Source of the DNA: Promethearchaeota archaeon
GTDB taxonomy: Archaea > Asgardarchaeota > Lokiarchaeia > Sigyniarchaeales > SOKP01
Reading direction: 5' to 3'
DNA: 16,866 nucleotides
Assembly (NCBI GenBank): GCA_016839585.1
Contig: JAEOTZ010000020.1
Location: 1 to 16,866 of the forward strand
A program made the translations under genes and the position numbers. Below the pieces are notes generated by a model, which saw only the letters and a list, made by a program, of their open reading frames with translations, did no database searches and had not been told where the DNA came from. Each line of letters begins with the position of its first letter. Positions within the stretch are counted from its first letter, which is position 1. Shown in pieces: positions 1-8,706 of this stretch.

Positions 1-3000
1 CTTGGATTCTTTATTATTTATAGACAAGTAGCACTAGTTAAAAAAGGAGAATTTAGAAATAAAGACCGAATCCAATGTATTATTTATGGAATTATTTTTG
101 GTTTATCAATCATGGTAGTTTTTACAGTCGCTGTTATTTTTACTGTAAGAACGCCGGAATTTTGGGACCCAGAAACTACTCCCCCTGATGTACATCCTTT
201 AGTATTATTAGTCCCTTTTATGTTCTGTTTAGGTTATATTTCATTTTATCCATTAATAGACTTTCTATTTATTGCTTTAAGTAAAGAATCAGATGAAGGA
301 TTGACTCCTTTTCATAAATTTTTAAGTACTAAGATTATAAATCTGTCAGGAAATCGACTTGTAAATGTATTAATTGCTTTAGTTTTTTATCTAATTGTAT
401 TCATTATCCCTCCCATTTTACTATCGATAACGGGATTGCCTTTTATCATGATATGGATAACTTGGATGCTTGTTTATCCTCTTATGATATTAACTTTTTA
501 TGGATCCAAGGGTTATATAGCAGGTATTTCAAATGTTTATTATCATATACCAGATCTAAGGAGATCTATTTTTCTTAATTTTGAAGATAGTAAAAGAGGA
601 ATGAAACAATTCATATCGGATCCAGGGTCTTACATAATACTAGGTTTGATGTTGTTTGTTTTTGTCTGGGCTTGGATTTCGTTAGTCCAAACGATCATGT
701 TCTTTTTTACTCGAACAATAGCAATTTCAACTATGACATCAGTCTTCGTTTTTGTAACCCTTCTATTTGGAATATTAGGATATTTTACACGTTTTTGGGG
801 AAGAAAAATAAAATACAGAGGAATTGATATTTATTTTGCAGCTTATCTAATGGCATCGATAGGAATTAATGTAATAGTTAATTTCTTAATCGTTAATCCT
901 GATAAATTACAATATACTTTTAATCTATGGGCTATTACAAACCAAATTTACTCTAATTTCTATATGTTTGCTTGGGCAGCCGTTATTGAAGAAATTGTTT
1001 TAGTTATTTTTACTTCTTATTTTATTATATCAAAAAATAATGAATTTGGTTTAAATATTAGGTACTCAAAAATTACTGAATGTGGCCAAACATTTGATCC
1101 AATTCCTTTATTTAATTTTATTAAACACCGTAATCCTAAAATAAGAAAACACGCGGAAGAAACTTTAATTTTAATGTTTGAAAGAATTCCTCTAAAGAAT
1201 GAAATAAATCTTAATGAATGGAAATTTAAAAACCCAATAATAGACGGTATTTGTGATTATGATCCAAATGTGAGAAAAATAAGCAATAAAATTTTGATTC
1301 AATTAGAAAACGAGGTTCCAGAATTATTATTACCCTGGATAATAGAAGCATTAGAGTCCCCAAATTATGATAAAAGTATCCCTATTACAAAAATTTTATT
1401 AAGAGCAAACATAGATTCTGTAGAAAAGATCCCTAAAAATATAATTTTTAATATTATTGAAGATTCAGAATGGAGAATGAAGATATTGGGACTTAAAATA
1501 TTAAGCAGATTGATAAAGAATAACCGTGACTTAATATTAAATGTAAATGTTAAAAAATTAATTAATAACCCCAACAGTCTTATTCAGGTTGAAATTCTTA
1601 ATCTTTTAGCAGCTTCATCTTATACTCTTCCTATTGATATCATTATTGATAAAATTTTTCATATTAATAATGAAATCAGCTCAGCAGCGGTTAAAAACCT
1701 AAAAAATCTTAATACAAAACAAATAAATAAAAAATTGATTTCTAAAATATTACCTCTTATGAAAGATCCTTCTAGTTCAGTTAGAACATCTATTTATGAG
1801 GTTCTAGCACAAATCGGCAACTTCAAAAAAAATAATATTCCGATTTTTCCCGTCCTTGACAGTTTAACAGATTCAAGTAAAGGAACAAGGCAAGCTGCGA
1901 TAAAAGTCCTCCTAATATATTTCGAAGAAGAACCAGATTTGTTAGATATTGACAATATAATTAATAAAATAGATTCAAATAATTTTGAGATATTACTGAG
2001 TATCACTTCTTTACTAGGAAAACTATGGAAACATAATCCTCAAAAGATATTGGAGACTTTTTTAATATTTATAAAATTTGAAAATAATCCATTAAAGGAA
2101 AATGTTTCGGAGATTTTAATAGAAAATTATAAAAGCACACCAGATTTAATAGTTCAAAATTTAATAAAAATACCAGATGATTCGAAATATATTACAAAGG
2201 GAATTATATCACAAACATTAATAGAGATAGGTAAAAGAGATCCAAAATATATAATTCCATTTTTATTAAATTATTTAACCAATGAAAATGATGATATAAG
2301 ATTAAATGCTCTTAATTCAATAGATGGTTTAATAGAAGAATTCATTGAATACGTTGATTTAAAACCTATCCTAATATTATTACAAAGGGATAAAAACAAA
2401 CAAGCAAAGAAAACAGCATCAAATATCCTTTCAAAAATAGCACAAAAAGATGCCTCTTTAATGAAACCTTTTATGTCCGAATTTTTACAAATAATAATTA
2501 AACAAGAATTATCTACGAAGATTGTTTTTTCTAAATCTTTATTAGAAATTGCAAAAGAATCACCTGATATTATCCCAGTTCAAGAAATTCTAAATTTTCT
2601 AAATGATCAAGATTCATTTATTCGTGAAACAAGTGTAAAAATTCTAGGTTTTATTGGATATAATCTTCCATTATCAACCGTTGATATTTTGATAAATAGA
2701 GCATTAACCGATGATGAATGGATAGTTAGAGAAGCAGCAGTTTCAAGTTTGGGTAAAATTATAAATCATGTCGAAGATAAGGAAAAAATTATTGAAAAAC
2801 TTATTTCTTTATTAAATGACGAGCAAAATTGGGTTCGTAGGTCTGTTTTGAATATGCTCTCTAATATTAGAGAGGTGAACGATTCTCATATTCCATTTGA
2901 TAATCTTATAAATAACTTAAAAAGTACTGATTCTAAAGTTAGAGAAGCGTCAGCGGGATTAATCCATATTTATAGCAATCAAATCGAACAGATTTTTGAT

Positions 3001-3297
3001 GATATTGCAATTCTCTTGGAAGATGAAACAAAAGAAGTAAGAGCAAGATGTATCAACAGTTTTGTAGCGATAATACAAAAAATAGGATTTGAAAAGATAT
3101 TAAATAAATTATTACAAAATCTAAGTGGTGAAGGTTCTTTAGAAATTCAACGTTCAATAGCATTAATTTTGGGTCGAACAGTGAAGTATGAAGATGAAAA
3201 AATAAAGAAAAGAGTAATATCCCTACTGAAAATAAGATGTGAAATGAGTCAAGATCCTATTATTTGTGCAACTCTACAACAACTTAAAGAAAGTTAA
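1..3297 (+). CDS. Polytopic membrane protein with long C-terminal HEAT-repeat alpha-solenoid (5'-truncated by window edge)
   Basis: The frame is open from base 1 (LGFFIIYRQVALVKKGEFRNKDRIQCIIYGIIFGLSI-MVVF...), so ATG 112 is probably internal. At least 8 hydrophobic helices lie before ~nt 1030. They are followed by recurrent HEAT signatures at ~35-40 aa spacing: DYDPNVRKIS, DPSSSVRTSI, DSSKGTRQAA, NENDDIRLNA, DQDSFIRETS, DDEWIVREAA, DEQNWVRRSV, STDSKVREAS, DETKEVRARC. Confidence 0.85.
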   Translation, partial: LGFFIIYRQVALVKKGEFRNKDRIQCIIYGIIFGLSIMVVFTVAVIFTVRTPEFWDPETTPPDVHPLVLLVPFMFCLGYISFYPLIDFLFIALSKESDEGLTPFHKFLSTKIINLSGNRLVNVLIALVFYLIVFIIPPILLSITGLPFIMIWITWMLVYPLMILTFYGSKGYIAGISNVYYHIPDLRRSIFLNFEDSKRGMKQFISDPGSYIILGLMLFVFVWAWISLVQTIMFFFTRTIAISTMTSVFVFVTLLFGILGYFTRFWGRKIKYRGIDIYFAAYLMASIGINVIVNFLIVNPDKLQYTFNLWAITNQIYSNFYMFAWAAVIEEIVLVIFTSYFIISKNNEFGLNIRYSKITECGQTFDPIPLFNFIKHRNPKIRKHAEETLILMFERIPLKNEINLNEWKFKNPIIDGICDYDPNVRKISNKILIQLENEVPELLLPWIIEALESPNYDKSIPITKILLRANIDSVEKIPKNIIFNIIEDSEWRMKILGLKILSRLIKNNRDLILNVNVKKLINNPNSLIQVEILNLLAASSYTLPIDIIIDKIFHINNEISSAAVKNLKNLNTKQINKKLISKILPLMKDPSSSVRTSIYEVLAQIGNFKKNNIPIFPVLDSLTDSSKGTRQAAIKVLLIYFEEEPDLLDIDNIINKIDSNNFEILLSITSLLGKLWKHNPQKILETFLIFIKFENNPLKENVSEILIENYKSTPDLIVQNLIKIPDDSKYITKGIISQTLIEIGKRDPKYIIPFLLNYLTNENDDIRLNALNSIDGLIEEFIEYVDLKPILILLQRDKNKQAKKTASNILSKIAQKDASLMKPFMSEFLQIIIKQELSTKIVFSKSLLEIAKESPDIIPVQEILNFLNDQDSFIRETSVKILGFIGYNLPLSTVDILINRALTDDEWIVREAAVSSLGKIINHVEDKEKIIEKLISLLNDEQNWVRRSVLNMLSNIREVNDSHIPFDNLINNLKSTDSKVREASAGLIHIYSNQIEQIFDDIAILLEDETKEVRARCINSFVAIIQKIGFEKILNKLLQNLSGEGSLEIQRSIALILGRTVKYEDEKIKKRVISLLKIRCEMSQDPIICATLQQLKES

Positions 3298-3456
3298 GCT
3301 ATTAATTAGATCAACGACAATTCAGTAAATCCCGCGTCATATTGTTCTTTTAATAAATATTTATTTACCTAATAATAAAAGTCAAATCGTTAATAGGATA
3401 GATTAAAAATCTATAATTATAATTAGGTATATTGAAAAAATTTGATATGATTTCCT

Positions 3457-5583
3457 ATGACAATACCTTTATCAAACCCTAGCCAACCGATTAATAAAGT
3501 TCAGCGTTTTGAGGATTTTTATCGATCATTTCAAGAAACACCTGGGGTGTATAAGTATAAAGATCAAATTAATGAAATTTACGCTAAAGGTGAGAATACT
3601 TTAGTTGTTTTATTTGAAGATTTATTAGCGAGTGATCCTGATATTGCAGAAATGCTAAAAAAAGATCCTGAAGATTTACTAGAAGACGCTGTGGAGGCAT
3701 TTAAGAATTTATTAAAATTTCAGGGAACACAATTGAATCACCCAGATTATTTTGTGAGAATAACTACAAAGGATAAAATGAGTCCATTACTAATCCCTTT
3801 AAGAGGTTTAAGAGCAAAGCATATTAGTTCACTAGTTTGGTCGAAAGGTATTTTAGTCAGATGTTCTACTATTAGACCAAAATTGGAAAAAGCAACTTTC
3901 ATATGTCATTTATGTGGAGCTCAGATTGATATACCTCAATTAACTTCAAGCATAAGATGGCCTAAATTCTGTACAAATAAACGCTGTAAAGCGAAAGCTC
4001 AAACTGATTTTATACTTATATCAAAACATTCAGAATTTATTGATTGGCAGAATATTATGATTCAGGAAATTCCGGAAGATTTACCTCCTGGAAGAATTCC
4101 TAGATCCGTCCAAGGAATTTTGACATATAATCTAGTTGATACTGTAAAACCAGGAGATAGAGTAAAGTTTACAGGAATTTTTAAATCTGTATTAGCACAA
4201 TCAATTAAAAGTAATAATTCTACGTTGTTCAAGACTTATTTTGACACCAATTTTATAGATCCTGAAGATAAGACAGAAGATGCAATTGATTTAACTAAAG
4301 AAGATAAGAAAAAAATTGAAGATCTATCAAAAGAACCATTTATTCAAAAAAAAATCGCACGATCAATCGCTCCAGATATATACGGGAGAGAAGATCTAAA
4401 ACTGGCATCAGCTTTAAGCTTATTCGCAGGAACAAGGAAGAAAAAACCCGGGGGAGGCTATAAAAGGGGTGATATCCATGTCCTTTTTGTAGGAGATCCT
4501 GGAACTGGGAAATCAGAAATCTTGAAAAGTGCTATAGAAGTATCACCACGAGGATTATACACTTCTGGAAAAGGTTCAACAGCGGTAGGTTTAACCGCTG
4601 CAGTAATTAAAGATACTGATACAGGTCAAATGAACCTTGAAGCAGGAGTTGTTGTTTTAGCAAATGGAGGAGTTGCAGCAATTGATGAATTTGATAAAAT
4701 GGATACTGCTGATAGATCTGCACTTCATGAAGCTATGGAACAACAAACTGTAAGTATAGCTAAAGCGGGAATTGTTGCTACATTGAAAGCACAAACTGCG
4801 ATCATTGCAGCAGCCAATCCTTATTCTGGAAGATATGATAGGTATAAAACACCAACTCAAAATATTCGACTACCACCTTCTCTGTTATCTCGTTTTGACT
4901 TAATTTTTATAGTCGTTGATAAACCTAATCCCGCAGATGATGCTCAAATGGCCGAATTTATTTTAAAAAATTCTATGATAACATCAGAAGCATCACTTGA
5001 AGAAAGTAATAGTTCAGTGGCACCAATCTCAAGAGATCTTTTAAAAAAATATATTAAGCACGCTAGAAGAACATGTAATCCTGTATTATCTGATGAAGCT
5101 AAAGAAAGAATAAAAGAATTCTACCTTGAATTAAGAGGTCAATATGATAGTGAAGACGCCATTATATCAATTTTAGCTAGAAATTTAGATGCTTTAGTCA
5201 GACTTAGTGAAGCTTATGCTAAAATGGCGTTAAGAAATAAAGTTCTTATGGAAGACGTAGAAGATATTATTAAAATATTCAAGAGATATCTTAAAGATAC
5301 AGGCTATGATGAAACAACTGGTAAAATTGATATGGATAGAATTTTTGTTGGACAATCTAGAACTAATCTGAATAAATTAGAAACTATTCTGGACAAATTA
5401 AAAGAAATCTTTGAAGAAAATAGTTGGAGAGCGCTTGAAAAATCCAACATAATCCAGATTTTAGAGTTAGAAGAAAACTTAGATAAAAAATTCATAGAGA
5501 ACGCGTTAGATGAGTTGATTAAAGAAGGAACCCTCTACGAACCAAAAAGTAACCAAATTAAGTTTACAAATAAAATAGATTAA
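3457..5583 (+). CDS. mcm: Minichromosome maintenance replicative DNA helicase MCM
   Basis: C4 zinc finger (CHLC...CTNKRC), QEIPEDLPPGRIPRS, KPGDRV, Walker A GDPGTGKS (nt 4492-4515), GKGSTAVGLTAAV, Walker B IDEFDKM, HEAMEQQTVSIAKAG, arginine finger SRFD and a C-terminal winged-helix-like segment. 708 aa, no intein. Confidence 0.98.
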   Translation: MTIPLSNPSQPINKVQRFEDFYRSFQETPGVYKYKDQINEIYAKGENTLVVLFEDLLASDPDIAEMLKKDPEDLLEDAVEAFKNLLKFQGTQLNHPDYFVRITTKDKMSPLLIPLRGLRAKHISSLVWSKGILVRCSTIRPKLEKATFICHLCGAQIDIPQLTSSIRWPKFCTNKRCKAKAQTDFILISKHSEFIDWQNIMIQEIPEDLPPGRIPRSVQGILTYNLVDTVKPGDRVKFTGIFKSVLAQSIKSNNSTLFKTYFDTNFIDPEDKTEDAIDLTKEDKKKIEDLSKEPFIQKKIARSIAPDIYGREDLKLASALSLFAGTRKKKPGGGYKRGDIHVLFVGDPGTGKSEILKSAIEVSPRGLYTSGKGSTAVGLTAAVIKDTDTGQMNLEAGVVVLANGGVAAIDEFDKMDTADRSALHEAMEQQTVSIAKAGIVATLKAQTAIIAAANPYSGRYDRYKTPTQNIRLPPSLLSRFDLIFIVVDKPNPADDAQMAEFILKNSMITSEASLEESNSSVAPISRDLLKKYIKHARRTCNPVLSDEAKERIKEFYLELRGQYDSEDAIISILARNLDALVRLSEAYAKMALRNKVLMEDVEDIIKIFKRYLKDTGYDETTGKIDMDRIFVGQSRTNLNKLETILDKLKEIFEENSWRALEKSNIIQILELEENLDKKFIENALDELIKEGTLYEPKSNQIKFTNKID

Positions 5584-5613
5584 TAAATTCCTATAAATTT
5601 AGTTTGAAATAAA

Positions 5614-5622
5614 TTTTTTTTT
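5614..5622 (+). terminator. Putative oligo-T terminator for mcm
   Basis: T9 tract ~30 nt after the mcm stop, at the end of the short convergent gap with the GTPase gene. Oligo-T tracts are known archaeal terminators, but the background is AT-rich. Confidence 0.35.
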
Positions 5623-6145
5623 AATAGAACACTTTTAATGCTTCTTTCGAAATATTCTTAAATGCTATTTCAACATTTTCTCCTGTTTTTGCAGATGTAT
5701 GAATAATAGAAATAGCATTTGTTCTCTTTTCTAAAGAGTTAATCTCTGTTTCACTCAATTCAAATCCTAAATCATTCTTATTTGCGAACAAAATAATTGG
5801 AGCATATGTACAGTATTGTTTTACATCAGGGATCCAGAATTTTTCAATTTGATCAAATGTATTCCTGCGTGTTAAATCCCCTACAATAATAATCCCCTTA
5901 GCCCCTGCATAATAAGATGGTCTCATACTTATCCAACGTTCTTGCCCAGCGATATCCCAAAGCTGTATCTTTATATCGATATCATTTTCTAATTTTATAT
6001 ATTTAGTAAAAATATTTGTTCCTATACTTGAACGATAGTCTTTAGAAAATTGCCCTGTAATAAATTTTTTAACTAAACTGGTTTTACCGACAGCAGGTTC
6101 TCCAATTACAATGATTTTAAGCGTGTATTTAATGGTCTTGTTCAT
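5621..6145 (-). CDS. Rab-like small GTPase (Ras superfamily), no C-terminal prenylation motif
   Basis: G1 GEPAVGKTS, G2 region YRSSIG, G3 IQLWDIAGQER, Rab-like YYAGAKG, G4 NKND, G5 SAKTGENV. Ends at EALKVFY with no Cys tail. Confidence 0.95.
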   Translation of the reverse strand: MNKTIKYTLKIIVIGEPAVGKTSLVKKFITGQFSKDYRSSIGTNIFTKYIKLENDIDIKIQLWDIAGQERWISMRPSYYAGAKGIIIVGDLTRRNTFDQIEKFWIPDVKQYCTYAPIILFANKNDLGFELSETEINSLEKRTNAISIIHTSAKTGENVEIAFKNISKEALKVFY

Positions 6146-6245
6146 ATATAATTAATTCTATGAAGTAACTTTTTTAAGTTTATATGTAAATAATAAACTA
6201 ATTAAGTTCAAAATATTAAAAAAAGAAAGATAGAGAGAAATTGTC
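6146..6245. promoter_or_regulatory. Divergent promoter region between GTPase and deacetylase genes
   Basis: 100-bp AT-rich gap between head-to-head start codons, with TATA-like TTTATATG at ~6179-6186. Individual elements cannot be assigned confidently. Confidence 0.4.
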
Positions 6246-7346
6246 ATGACTACAGGCATAGTATACGACGATATTTACTTAGAACATGATATTGGAACTC
6301 AACTACAGCATCAAGAGAGCCATGAACGATTGATAGCGATAATGGATTTTTTAAAACAACAACATTTACTTGAAGATCCAAACTTTAAAATCATTAAACC
6401 AAGAAAAGCAACATTAGACCAAATCAAATATGTCCACCAAGAAAGATTAATCAAAGAGATTCAAGAAATATGTGACTTAAGCGCTAAAACGCGCCGTCTT
6501 CAGGCAATTGATATGGATACAGTAGCTTCCCCTAAAACCTATGAAGCATCATTATTCTCAACTGGTGGAAATTTGCAGGCTATAGATGAGATATTAAATA
6601 ATAACATAAAAAATGCTTTCGCATTGGTAAGACCTCCTGGACACCATTCTAATTCACATCGATTTGCTGGATTTTGCATCTTCAATAATATTGCTGTCGC
6701 TGCAGAATATCTTTTTAGAGAAAAAGGAATAAAAAAAATAGTTATTGTTGATTGGGATTGCCATCATGGTAATGGCACTCAAGATATATTTTATCAGGGT
6801 CCTAAATCAGATTCAGGCGAATTAGTAATATTTAATTCCCACCAAGATGGTAGAACACTCTACCCTGGAAGTGGGTTTATAGACGAAGTAGGTTCAGGGA
6901 AGGGTGAAGGTAGAATCATTAATTATCCAATGCCACCAGGCTCTGCTGATGATGTTATTCCTATCTATTTTAATGAAATAATAGCTCCTATTTGTGATGA
7001 ATTTAAACCAGAATTTATTTTAATTTCTGCAGGTTTTGATACTCATTGGACTGATTACACAAATATGAATTGGACATACCAAGCACCTGCAAACTATCTA
7101 AAAAAAATAAAATCAATGGCACAAAAATATGCTAATGAAAGAATTCTTATAACTTTAGAGGGAGGTTACGAACTAGATAAACAAGCTCGGGGTGTTTATA
7201 ATTGTCTAAAAGTACTTAATAATGAGGATGATAATCTAATACTTGAAGAATCAAGATCTTCTAGAACAGAGTTGCTAGAATATTTCAATTATAAATTAAT
7301 TCCCGCACTGAAAGAAAAACTAAAACCATATTGGGAATGCTTTTAA
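6246..7346 (+). CDS. Zn-dependent histone deacetylase family protein (class II-like / AcuC-AphA superfamily)
   Basis: RPPGHH catalytic His pair, GFCIFNN, Zn ligands in DWDCHHGNGTQ and SAGFDTH, YPGSG, and LEGGY with the catalytic Tyr. Confidence 0.96.
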   Translation: MTTGIVYDDIYLEHDIGTQLQHQESHERLIAIMDFLKQQHLLEDPNFKIIKPRKATLDQIKYVHQERLIKEIQEICDLSAKTRRLQAIDMDTVASPKTYEASLFSTGGNLQAIDEILNNNIKNAFALVRPPGHHSNSHRFAGFCIFNNIAVAAEYLFREKGIKKIVIVDWDCHHGNGTQDIFYQGPKSDSGELVIFNSHQDGRTLYPGSGFIDEVGSGKGEGRIINYPMPPGSADDVIPIYFNEIIAPICDEFKPEFILISAGFDTHWTDYTNMNWTYQAPANYLKKIKSMAQKYANERILITLEGGYELDKQARGVYNCLKVLNNEDDNLILEESRSSRTELLEYFNYKLIPALKEKLKPYWECF

Positions 7347-7452
7347 GAAGTTACTTACAAAACACTTTTATATTTACATTTATGCTATTATTATAATTGC
7401 ACTAATTATTGTATAATTAAATTAAAGATAAAAAAATCATAGAGAGATTATT

Positions 7453-8397
7453 ATGTCAGACGAATATGAGAGAAATGATAAGGATAAGGATAATGAAAAA
7501 AAACCATTTTCAACACCTTCAATGCCACCACCATCAGTAACCCCTTTAACACCTCCTCCTTCAATGCCACCGCCCACGGCTACACCACCTACTACTCCAC
7601 CACCTCTTACAACACCTCCTGCCCCTCCTACCCAACAAATACCTTCTCCACCCACACTTGAATCAACTCCACCACCTATTATGGATAATATACCACCTCC
7701 AATTTTAGATTCCACTCCTTCAATTTCAATAGGTCCTTCACAAGATGAATACGAATCAGTTAGAATACAACTCCAAGAAAAAGATTCTACTATAAATCAA
7801 TTACAAACCCAAATAAATGAATTAAATACCCAAAACTCGCAATTCAATGCTATAGTTCGGGAAAAAGAGAGTCAAGTGAATCGGATAACAAACCAACTAC
7901 AATCTCTTCAGAGTTCAACTGAAGCTTATCAACAACAAGTAAAACAATTGACTGATCAAAATGCTCAACTACAAGCTCATATTCCTGGATTACAACAGCA
8001 AGTTCAAGAGCTTCAACAACATAATTCAATGCTACAACAGCAAATTGGGCCATTACAGGCGCAAATTACTAAATTACAAGAAGAAGTTGCATATAAAGAA
8101 AAACGTATTGAAGAATTAAAAGAACCTAAAGCAGTTATGCCATCTAGTTTAGCTCAAGGAATAACCTCTCAAACCCTGACTCCCAGTTATGGAACAACAC
8201 CTTCTATTTCTCCCTCTACAACACCAACTCCTAGTCCATCTATGCCAGTGGGAACAGGAAGAAGAGTATGTCCTAGCTGTGGTGCTTCAGGTTTTGCTGT
8301 GAAGGAGGTGGAAGATAAAACAAGAATCATAAGTTACATTCCTAAACCAACTTACGCAAAGAAGTATGTCTGTACTAAGTGTGGTTTTGAATTCTAG
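7453..8397 (+). CDS. Hypothetical Pro-rich / Gln-rich coiled-coil / C-terminal C4 zinc-ribbon protein
   Basis: Pro/Thr/Ser-rich aa ~18-95, heptad-patterned Gln-rich helix aa ~98-224, second P/S/T linker, then CPSCG (C273) and CTKCG (C307) at the C-terminus. No TM segment or signal peptide. Confidence 0.85.
   Translation: MSDEYERNDKDKDNEKKPFSTPSMPPPSVTPLTPPPSMPPPTATPPTTPPPLTTPPAPPTQQIPSPPTLESTPPPIMDNIPPPILDSTPSISIGPSQDEYESVRIQLQEKDSTINQLQTQINELNTQNSQFNAIVREKESQVNRITNQLQSLQSSTEAYQQQVKQLTDQNAQLQAHIPGLQQQVQELQQHNSMLQQQIGPLQAQITKLQEEVAYKEKRIEELKEPKAVMPSSLAQGITSQTLTPSYGTTPSISPSTTPTPSPSMPVGTGRRVCPSCGASGFAVKEVEDKTRIISYIPKPTYAKKYVCTKCGFEF
7516..7571 (+). repeat. 14-bp direct repeat CCTTCAATGCCACC (PSMPP) inside the Pro-rich coding region
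   Basis: Exact copies at 7516-7529 and 7558-7571, a 42-nt in-frame period. Confidence 0.7.
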
Positions 8398-8706
8398 GAA
8401 AGAGATTAGACTAATATTTAATGTTTAATCATCTGAATTAGTATATTATTTTACATTTTTTAGGATATTTTTTACAAGGATATTTTTATCAAATCTTTTT
8501 AACAAAGAGAAAAATATCTTAATATAATTTGTTAAAGAGCCAAGTTTAATTTTCTAAATACTATTGTTTAATAAATTCAGCACACTAAATTCAATAAGAT
8601 TATTATAGTTTACAATCTAATTTTAAAAGCTTAGCTCTCATTCATTTATTATAAAAAAGTTCTAGAATTTTTCTACTTTGATTCAAATACAATTTTGTGT
8701 TTTATC

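Follow-up and report, generated by a model that had tools for sequence, protein, structure and literature searches.

The DNA analyzed here, referred to below as the window, is the first 16.9 kb (16,866 nucleotides) of contig C1 (JAEOTZ010000020.1) in the 3.45-Mb, 91-contig assembly GCA_016839585.1 of a Promethearchaeota archaeon. It opens inside a gene, which we name TM-HEAT, whose 1098-aa product joins a polytopic transmembrane (TM) domain to a long HEAT-repeat solenoid. The genes that follow code for MCM, a Ras-family GTPase (on the opposite strand), a class I/II HDAC-type deacetylase, a coiled-coil protein, and a large transglutaminase-like protein, in DNA of ~26–35% G+C (table 1). An Asgard origin is supported both by the source names of the homologs and by the neighbors of the gene, as MCM, a Ras-like GTPase, and an HDAC are typical of Asgard genomes. 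In related genomes, TM-HEAT was found beside gins23 and frequently also beside mcm, and this context raised the possibility, which we put forward tentatively, that its product is a membrane-embedded platform on which replication or chromosome proteins would dock.

Frame 1 is open from base 1 of the window to the stop codon at 3295–3297, and because the contig starts inside the gene, the 5′ end is truncated. A second, full-length copy in the same assembly (G000:C63; L004:5936–9241, minus strand; 1101 aa, 62% identical throughout) and the same-genus orthologs (open frames of 1117–1125 aa) extend further, so that the window copy is estimated to lack ~16–20 N-terminal residues, comprising most of TM1. 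An ATG at nucleotide 112 was rejected as the start codon, since it encodes an internal Met within TM2 and the orthologs continue upstream of it.

Table 1. Coordinates of TM-HEAT, its domains and motifs, and the adjoining mcm gene in the window
Feature	Position (nt)	Strand	Remark
TM-HEAT gene, 5′-truncated	1..3297	+	1098 codons plus stop
Polytopic membrane domain	1..1029	+	Coordinates carried over from the full-length C63 copy by alignment
TM1 tail	1..~42	+	
TM2	58..147	+	
TM3	199..279	+	
TM4	355..429	+	
TM5	442..546	+	
TM6	625..711	+	
TM7	739..807	+	
TM8	820..921	+	
TM9	958..1029	+	
TM3 motif Y-P-L-I-D, window residues 83–87	247..261	+	Pro invariant; D87 position acidic in 38/38 aligned members
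Most conserved block: TM7 end, juxtamembrane GYFxRFWxRKxK, TM8 with N290/N294	778..885	+	
Cytoplasmic HEAT solenoid (predicted)	1075..3294	+	~740 aa, 43 helices
AT-rich spacer, TM-HEAT stop to mcm start	3298..3456	.	159 bp
mcm	3457..5583	+	MCM_N, OB, P-loop, lid; co-oriented, directly 3′ of TM-HEAT

Topology and Conservation of the Membrane Domain

The hydropathy scan, together with an AlphaFold2 model of the TM domain built from 38 diverse family members (predicted local distance difference test [pLDDT] 86.3; predicted template-modeling score 0.84), revealed nine TM helices in the full-length form, of which the window copy retains eight and the tail of TM1, as well as short amphipathic helices in loops 3 and 5. 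In a hand count on the full-length copy, ~27 Lys/Arg residues fell on the odd-numbered loops and the segment following TM9, versus ~4 on the N-terminus and the even-numbered loops. Because these residues are concentrated on the odd loops and the C-terminal side, the predicted topology is N-out and C-in, which places the HEAT domain in the cytoplasm.

The TM domain was better conserved than the solenoid at each of three tiers of divergence from the reference, with identities of 68–70, 30–43, and 19–27% versus 50–60, 28–31, and 12–21%. Across the 38 sequences, G18, P88, P163, W269, and K274 (full-length numbering) are invariant, the residue at TM3 position 91 is always acidic, and TM8 carries an Asn pair, N293 (97%) and N297 (92%), separated by four residues or one helical turn (N290 and N294 in the window). 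W269 and K274 (W266 and K271 in the window) both belong to a basic juxtamembrane motif after TM7, which takes the family-wide form GYFx[RK][FY]Wx[RK]xxK. The window protein therewith fits the signature of the Asgard 9TM-HEAT family as defined in the present analysis, namely YPxx[DE] in TM3, GYFxRFWxRKxK after TM7, NxxxN in TM8, and ~20 HEAT repeats. Conservation was 0.47 within the membrane, 0.44 in the cytoplasmic loops, and 0.33 in the outer loops, in which nearly all indels of the domain fall, and it was highest in the block formed by TM7, loop 7, and TM8 (0.51–0.61). Given the low conservation and the concentration of indels in the outer loops, the functional surface is predicted to be intramembrane and cytoplasmic. 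The TM module is probably more than an anchor, since it is better conserved than the solenoid and bears invariant polar residues within the membrane.

The search for relatives of this domain was uniformly negative. Residues 1–370 had no match in Pfam at E ≤ 10 or in NCBIfam at E ≤ 1, and the family profile retrieved only composition-level matches from the PDB sequences, such as the V-ATPase c subunit (E 0.008 over 79 residues). When the TM model was compared with 350,542 solved chains by Foldseek, none was found at E ≤ 0.001 (best E 0.5, TM-scores ≤0.25), and LacY, VMAT, Spns2, and MFSD2A gave TM-scores of 0.12–0.23 at E about 1. The VIA-align comparison with 48,161 chains included no MFS chain among the 50 entries listed, and its matches mostly covered the first helical hairpin. 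SERINC3 was the only solved chain aligned over most of the model (Z 9.3, 220 residues, root-mean-square deviation 6.3 Å, 6% identity), with a Z-score below the level that unrelated helical bundles reach by chance; the SERINCs, lipid-handling proteins with ten TM helices, also differ from TM-HEAT in helix number and are regarded as a lead only. Internal repeats were not detected by hhalign of halves and quarters of the domain (probabilities ≤1.3%).

Membership in MFS was rejected on the basis of the nine rather than 12 TM helices, the lack of an internal repeat, and the lack of a Pfam or NCBIfam match, and membership in the NTT/TLC-HEAT group was rejected because, despite the C-terminal HEAT repeats, the TM part has no TLC domain (no Pfam match at E ≤ 10). 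In the databases, members appear as "HEAT repeat domain-containing protein," several as "MFS transporter," and some as "sister chromatid cohesion protein PDS5"; the latter two labels are unsupported by the tests made. The bacterial NTT(TLC)/MFS-HEAT fusions resemble TM-HEAT in joining an N-terminal polytopic domain to cytoplasmic HEAT repeats in one chain. TM-HEAT differs from them in having no detectable TLC or MFS domain, nine rather than 12 TM helices, and no cyclic nucleotide monophosphate (cNMP)-binding domain, in its much longer solenoid (~20 repeats), in its confinement to Asgard archaea, and in its linkage to gins23 and mcm.

These observations bear on the possibility that TM-HEAT is a transporter, channel, or membrane sensor with the cytoplasmic HEAT repeats as a regulatory or adaptor appendage, functioning in the manner of the bacterial NTT-HEAT or MFS-HEAT fusions, in which case its linkage to gins23 and mcm would be fortuitous, a product of how the gene came to be inserted and of a shared promoter. 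Intramembrane patterns of acidic, Asn, Pro, and Gly residues are typical of ion or substrate sites, and the acidic TM3 residue, the TM8 Asn pair, and the invariant helix Pro and Gly fit that description. The conservation of the TM module above that of the solenoid, the constitutive fusion described below, and the name "MFS transporter" chosen by some database annotators point in the same direction, whereas the nine-helix count, the failure to match any transporter family by sequence or fold, the lack of an internal inverted-repeat signal, and the outer loops being the least conserved part speak against it. We regard this alternative as possible, if somewhat doubtful. The strongly conserved TM core with its invariant acidic, Asn, Trp, and Lys residues, in a fold that matches no solved structure, could also belong to an integral-membrane enzyme modifying lipids, glycans, or proteins, with the solenoid recruiting substrates in a manner akin to TM-plus-solenoid glycosyltransferases, except that the solenoid would be cytoplasmic. 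No resemblance to membrane enzyme families, GT-C among them, was found, however, nor were biosynthetic genes consistently adjacent, and we consider an enzyme very improbable.

The HEAT Solenoid

The remainder of the window protein was assigned by Pfam to HEAT, HEAT_2, and HEAT_EZ repeats (E 1e-29 to 1e-12; HEAT_2, E 2e-29), with no catalytic or cNMP-binding domain detected. In the AlphaFold model of residues 362–1101 of the full-length copy (pLDDT 89.8), this region is all-helical, and its 43 helices would make up about 20–21 two-helix repeats, of which the last six to seven are of the canonical prokaryotic HEAT_2/EZ type. The Foldseek matches to karyopherin-β2, SF3B1, CAND1, importins, and PP2A-A were of similar strength (E 1e-12 to 1e-10, probability 1.0, TM-scores 0.27–0.38), and the modeled solenoid is therefore placed in the generic long-HEAT class with no favored family; with TM-scores in this range and no family preferred, there is no evidence for a specific ancestry. 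The overlapping Pfam matches in the solenoid (Cnd1, GCN1_C, SCD, and others) are likewise generic. Cnd1 scored 45.7 bits (cut-off 26.4) in a stretch of 109 residues covered by HEAT, HEAT_2, and HEAT_EZ as well, and SCD reached 29.8 bits overall against 27.5 with no single stretch passing alone, both of which we read as a generic HEAT signal.

In fold class and size, the solenoid thus resembles the eukaryotic long HEAT solenoids (karyopherin-β2, SF3B1, CAND1, PP2A-A, and the adaptin and HAWK trunks), parts of it being matched by the Cnd1, GCN1, and SCD models, although those proteins are soluble and TM-HEAT is permanently embedded in the membrane. NblB and CpcE, which are prokaryotic HEAT_2/EZ proteins of the PBS-lyase-like kind, share the repeat type of the C-terminal six to seven repeats but are short and soluble, and their NCBIfam equivalog models scored TM-HEAT far under the cut-offs (40 vs. 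300 bits and 21 vs. 330 bits).

Most of what the sequence-only reading had described agrees with these results. It had counted at least eight TM helices followed by a solenoid of probably ~19–20 HEAT repeats, had seen neither a catalytic nor a cNMP-binding domain, had failed to recognize the TM family, and had pictured a permanently membrane-embedded α-solenoid; each of these points was borne out by the hydropathy scan, the AlphaFold models, the Pfam and NCBIfam scans, and the searches of PDB sequences and folds. The full-length relatives showed how much is missing from the N-terminus, which it had suggested recovering, and the Lys/Arg count answered its question on the side of the HEAT repeats in favor of the inside. 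Its comparison with eukaryotic HEAT solenoids held for the generic fold class, the solenoid showing no specific affinity to adaptins, HAWKs, or karyopherins. It had also weighed a known MFS/NTT transporter or glycosyltransferase-HEAT fusion, to which no match was found, and generic repeats lacking Asgard-specific conservation, on which the outcome is divided, as the family is Asgard-specific whereas the C-terminal repeats are of the ordinary HEAT_2/EZ type.

Distribution of the TM-HEAT Family

The word-indexed search returned 256 relatives, among the 120 best of which nearly all are 1100–1125 aa long (the few shorter ones being mostly labeled partial) and the source names are Promethearchaeota and Loki-, Thor-, Hermod-, Hod-, and Odinarchaeota. 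With the TM domain alone, phmmer detected only 61 clusters among 1.84 billion cluster representatives. The matches longer than ~940 aa all measured 983–1289 aa, the shorter ones resemble fragments, and of ten divergent representatives looked up, the eight with a source name were Asgard (Prometh-/Lokiarchaeota), "archaeon," and one "Bathyarchaeota." All source-named matches of 196–748 aa in the profile search were labeled partial and the unnamed ones resemble fragments, while the profile search for longer proteins yielded Asgard HEAT fusions only. A stand-alone or otherwise-fused TM domain was not found in these searches, and the TM-HEAT fusion is accordingly judged constitutive on present sequences.

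Among 301 Asgard-phylum genomes sampled on the basis of GTDB, TM-HEAT was present in 65/68 from the window's family (f1) and 7/7 from the sister family (f2), the latter with two to six paralogs each, and it is single-copy in most genomes. Weak, distant versions were detected in families f4 (1/1), f16 (10/11), f27 (3/3), and f7 (1/28), and none was found in f9 (0/76), f14 (0/19), f24 (0/21), f29 (0/11), and others of the same sample. By this survey, the family is Asgard-specific without being pan-Asgard, its range comprising the window's order and, as distant forms, a few further families. In one closed 4.36-Mb genome of f2, five paralogs of 1145–2037 aa were observed, of which four comprise the TM module and HEAT/Adaptin_N-type repeats, and the fifth (1560 aa) had no Pfam match at E ≤ 0.001. 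Paralogs of 1477–2037 aa with the same TM module are located in the sister-family genome G210 at L011:5400–9833, L012:2966–9079, and L013:5068–9750.

The 2037-aa sister-family paralog passes the Pfam Adaptin_N gathering score (55.9 vs. 37 bits), and this result speaks in favor of a coat- or adaptor-like scaffold for membrane shaping or trafficking, an adaptin/coatomer analog possibly recruited by the neighboring Ras/Arf-like GTPase. A long HEAT solenoid at the membrane and a small GTPase gene two genes downstream of TM-HEAT in f1 would suit such a role, which the sequence-only reading had also entertained. Downstream of mcm, the order Ras-family GTPase (minus strand), HDAC, and coiled-coil protein is shared between the window (5621–8397) and another f1 locus (L006:13671–16391) at 72–76% identity and is conserved within f1; the block is, however, absent near the f2 copy, where the GTPase neighbor is not kept, and no GTPase gene was found within 10 kb in L007. 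The window protein, moreover, has no Adaptin_N match in Pfam at E ≤ 0.01, its solenoid fold matches are generic, and its modeled chain ends in HEAT helices with no appendage domain. The large subunits of adaptins and coatomer carry a hinge and an appendage and are soluble, adaptins forming soluble heterotetramers, in contrast to a polytopic protein that starts with nine TM helices. We thus find a coat-like role without support in the window protein and rate this alternative as very unlikely; like the enzymatic one, it has little specific support.

The full-text literature search found no paper describing the TM-HEAT family. The related remarks in earlier work were general ones, on the clustering of lokiarchaeal HEAT proteins with adaptors (PMC5228436), on signature proteins of the "adaptin N HEAT" kind (PMC9834061), and on clusters of α-solenoids (10.64898/2026.10.28.762692). 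Judging from the Adaptin_N score above, some of the "adaptin-like" signature proteins counted in Lokiarchaeia may be membrane-embedded members of the TM-HEAT family.

Linkage of TM-HEAT with gins23 and mcm

In related loci, the gene directly 5′ of TM-HEAT is divergently oriented across a spacer of ~90–250 bp and encodes a protein of 177–189 aa, which matched Pfam Sld5 over the cut-off (E 1.9e-7). A profile of seven of these neighbor proteins retrieved from the PDB the PSF2 chains 8ouw_B (2.4e-5), 2q9q_A, and 2e9x_B and the archaeal GINS 3anw (3anw_B), and we assign the neighbor to the Psf2/Gins23-type GINS subunits. By comparing coordinates from two genome-wide searches, gins23 was found adjoining the best TM-HEAT copy, and divergent from it, in 56/56 genomes with gins23 found, which cover 13 genera of f1 and f2. 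Each genome has a single gins23, except one in which two gins23 genes accompany two TM-HEAT copies. The neighbor of the window gene itself is unseen because the contig ends inside TM-HEAT, and the only gins23 of the assembly adjoins the C63 copy.

On the other side, mcm lies directly 3′ of TM-HEAT on the same contig in 47/50 f1 genomes, being on another contig in the other three, and is located elsewhere in 7/7 f2 genomes, in which TM-HEAT has stayed beside gins23 although mcm has moved away. In a distant subfamily (TM identity ~23–27%), one contig shows the order mcm, gins23-like (minus strand), and TM-HEAT, the gins23-like gene being supported by an hhalign probability of 94.5% over 176 columns, and on a second contig the same divergent position is occupied by a partial gins23-like gene. 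This persistence of the gins23 linkage through rearrangement in f2 and in the distant subfamily is at odds with the accidental neighborhood that a transporter or sensor would imply.

Five Asgard genomes of families without TM-HEAT were also inspected. In three of them (G005:C28, G011:C23, and G012:C1), gins23 lies directly 5′ of mcm and is co-oriented with it, an arrangement found in Sulfolobus as well, and in the other two the genes are ≤4 kb apart. Because lineages without TM-HEAT keep gins23 and mcm adjacent or close, TM-HEAT is placed inside a gins23–mcm unit. The gene orders imply an ancestral state with gins23 beside mcm, from which the window's lineage would have arisen by inversion of gins23 and insertion of TM-HEAT.

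Several other features of these neighborhoods were recorded. In f1, the TopoVI B and A genes are found upstream of TM-HEAT, a few genes away. In only two related contigs, from different subfamilies (L016:1–3244 and L017:13514–13935), SMC_N-domain genes lie no more than 6 kb from TM-HEAT, which may be chance. Directly 5′ of the second TM-HEAT subfamily, and co-oriented with it, a DUF4332/helix-hairpin-helix protein of 260 aa is encoded in 3/3 loci on unrelated contigs (L008:9065–9850, L017:3509–4291, and L018:5211–5999); since the genes overlap by one base or are at most 12 bp apart, this protein is a likely partner of that subfamily. The window mcm encodes an uninterrupted 708-aa protein. In many relatives, the mcm gene downstream of TM-HEAT has an open frame of ~1234–1260 aa with the match split at residue ~432 or ~353, and because an Intein_splicing domain was found at the split in L020, these interruptions are probably inteins. 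In one closed genome (L005), only a 123-aa MCM_N remnant (L005:11528–11896) follows TM-HEAT.

Contig C63 (L004:1–14000) is a second, fully syntenic block in comparison with window positions 1–8400, containing TopoVI-B/A, two small genes, gins23, TM-HEAT, mcm, and the genes for the Ras-like GTPase, HDAC, and coiled-coil protein. The window TM-HEAT is the genus-type ortholog, with 64–84% identity to same-genus genomes, versus only 60–66% between the C63 copy and every same-genus ortholog, and for this reason C63 may be either an old duplication or a contig mis-binned from another genus. Two blocks, each with its own gins23, are present in genome G180 as well.

Possible Role at the Membrane

Among the explanations considered, we favor a docking platform embedded in the membrane, with a solenoid that would recruit GINS/MCM, or other proteins of replication or of the chromosome, to the membrane or would regulate them there. 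This proposal is drawn from the gene context only, and we advance it as a tentative reading that is possible rather than probable. In the predicted topology, the nine-helix module, with its N-terminus outside, holds the ~20-repeat solenoid on the cytoplasmic face of the membrane. According to the proposal, the solenoid would bind partner proteins, probably from the CMG helicase or the wider replisome (GINS, MCM) or else concerned with chromosome organization, by which replication would be attached to, or regulated at, the membrane. The insertion of the gene into an ancestral gins23–mcm unit, where it would share the divergent spacer with gins23, and the linkage to both genes in a different order in the distant subfamily are consistent with this scheme. 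In a more specific version, the protein would anchor the archaeal CMG helicase, the replisome, or the replicating chromosome to the membrane, with the HEAT platform docking GINS and/or MCM in Lokiarchaeia-type Asgards; this anchor version appears rather unlikely in our estimate.

Several points weigh against the docking proposal. Gene order is circumstantial and the link to replication putative, related genomes are non-independent samples, and the very distant homologs in f16, f27, and f4 are not near gins23. The conservation of the TM domain and its intramembrane polar residues would suit a transporter or an enzyme no less than a scaffold. In addition, the Foldseek results gave the solenoid no specific similarity to any replisome HEAT/ARM protein, and the HEAT domain carries a near-neutral to acidic rather than a basic charge, which makes direct nonspecific DNA binding unlikely and favors protein partners instead. 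A complex prediction for the HEAT domain with the cognate Gins23 scored 0.00 in a run without controls and counts neither for nor against binding. The docking platform and the transporter or sensor are compatible with each other.

The tethering of the chromosome, which the sequence-only reading had suggested from the architecture, gained circumstantial support from the tight gins23/mcm linkage, which that reading could not see because the contig ends within the gene, while the role itself stays putative. The gins23/mcm context is new, and a HEAT scaffold combining a nine-TM module with linkage to replication genes is unlike any described system. Some Asgard annotations of "adaptin-like" proteins and "MFS transporters" would refer to this membrane family. 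If the anchor version is true, TM-HEAT would be a precedent in prokaryotes for replication and chromatin attached to the envelope, made with a eukaryote-style α-solenoid. For cultured members of the order, it offers a concrete candidate for attaching the replisome to the membrane. The organization of chromosomes and replication relative to membranes in Asgards is relevant, in turn, to hypotheses on how the nuclear envelope arose.

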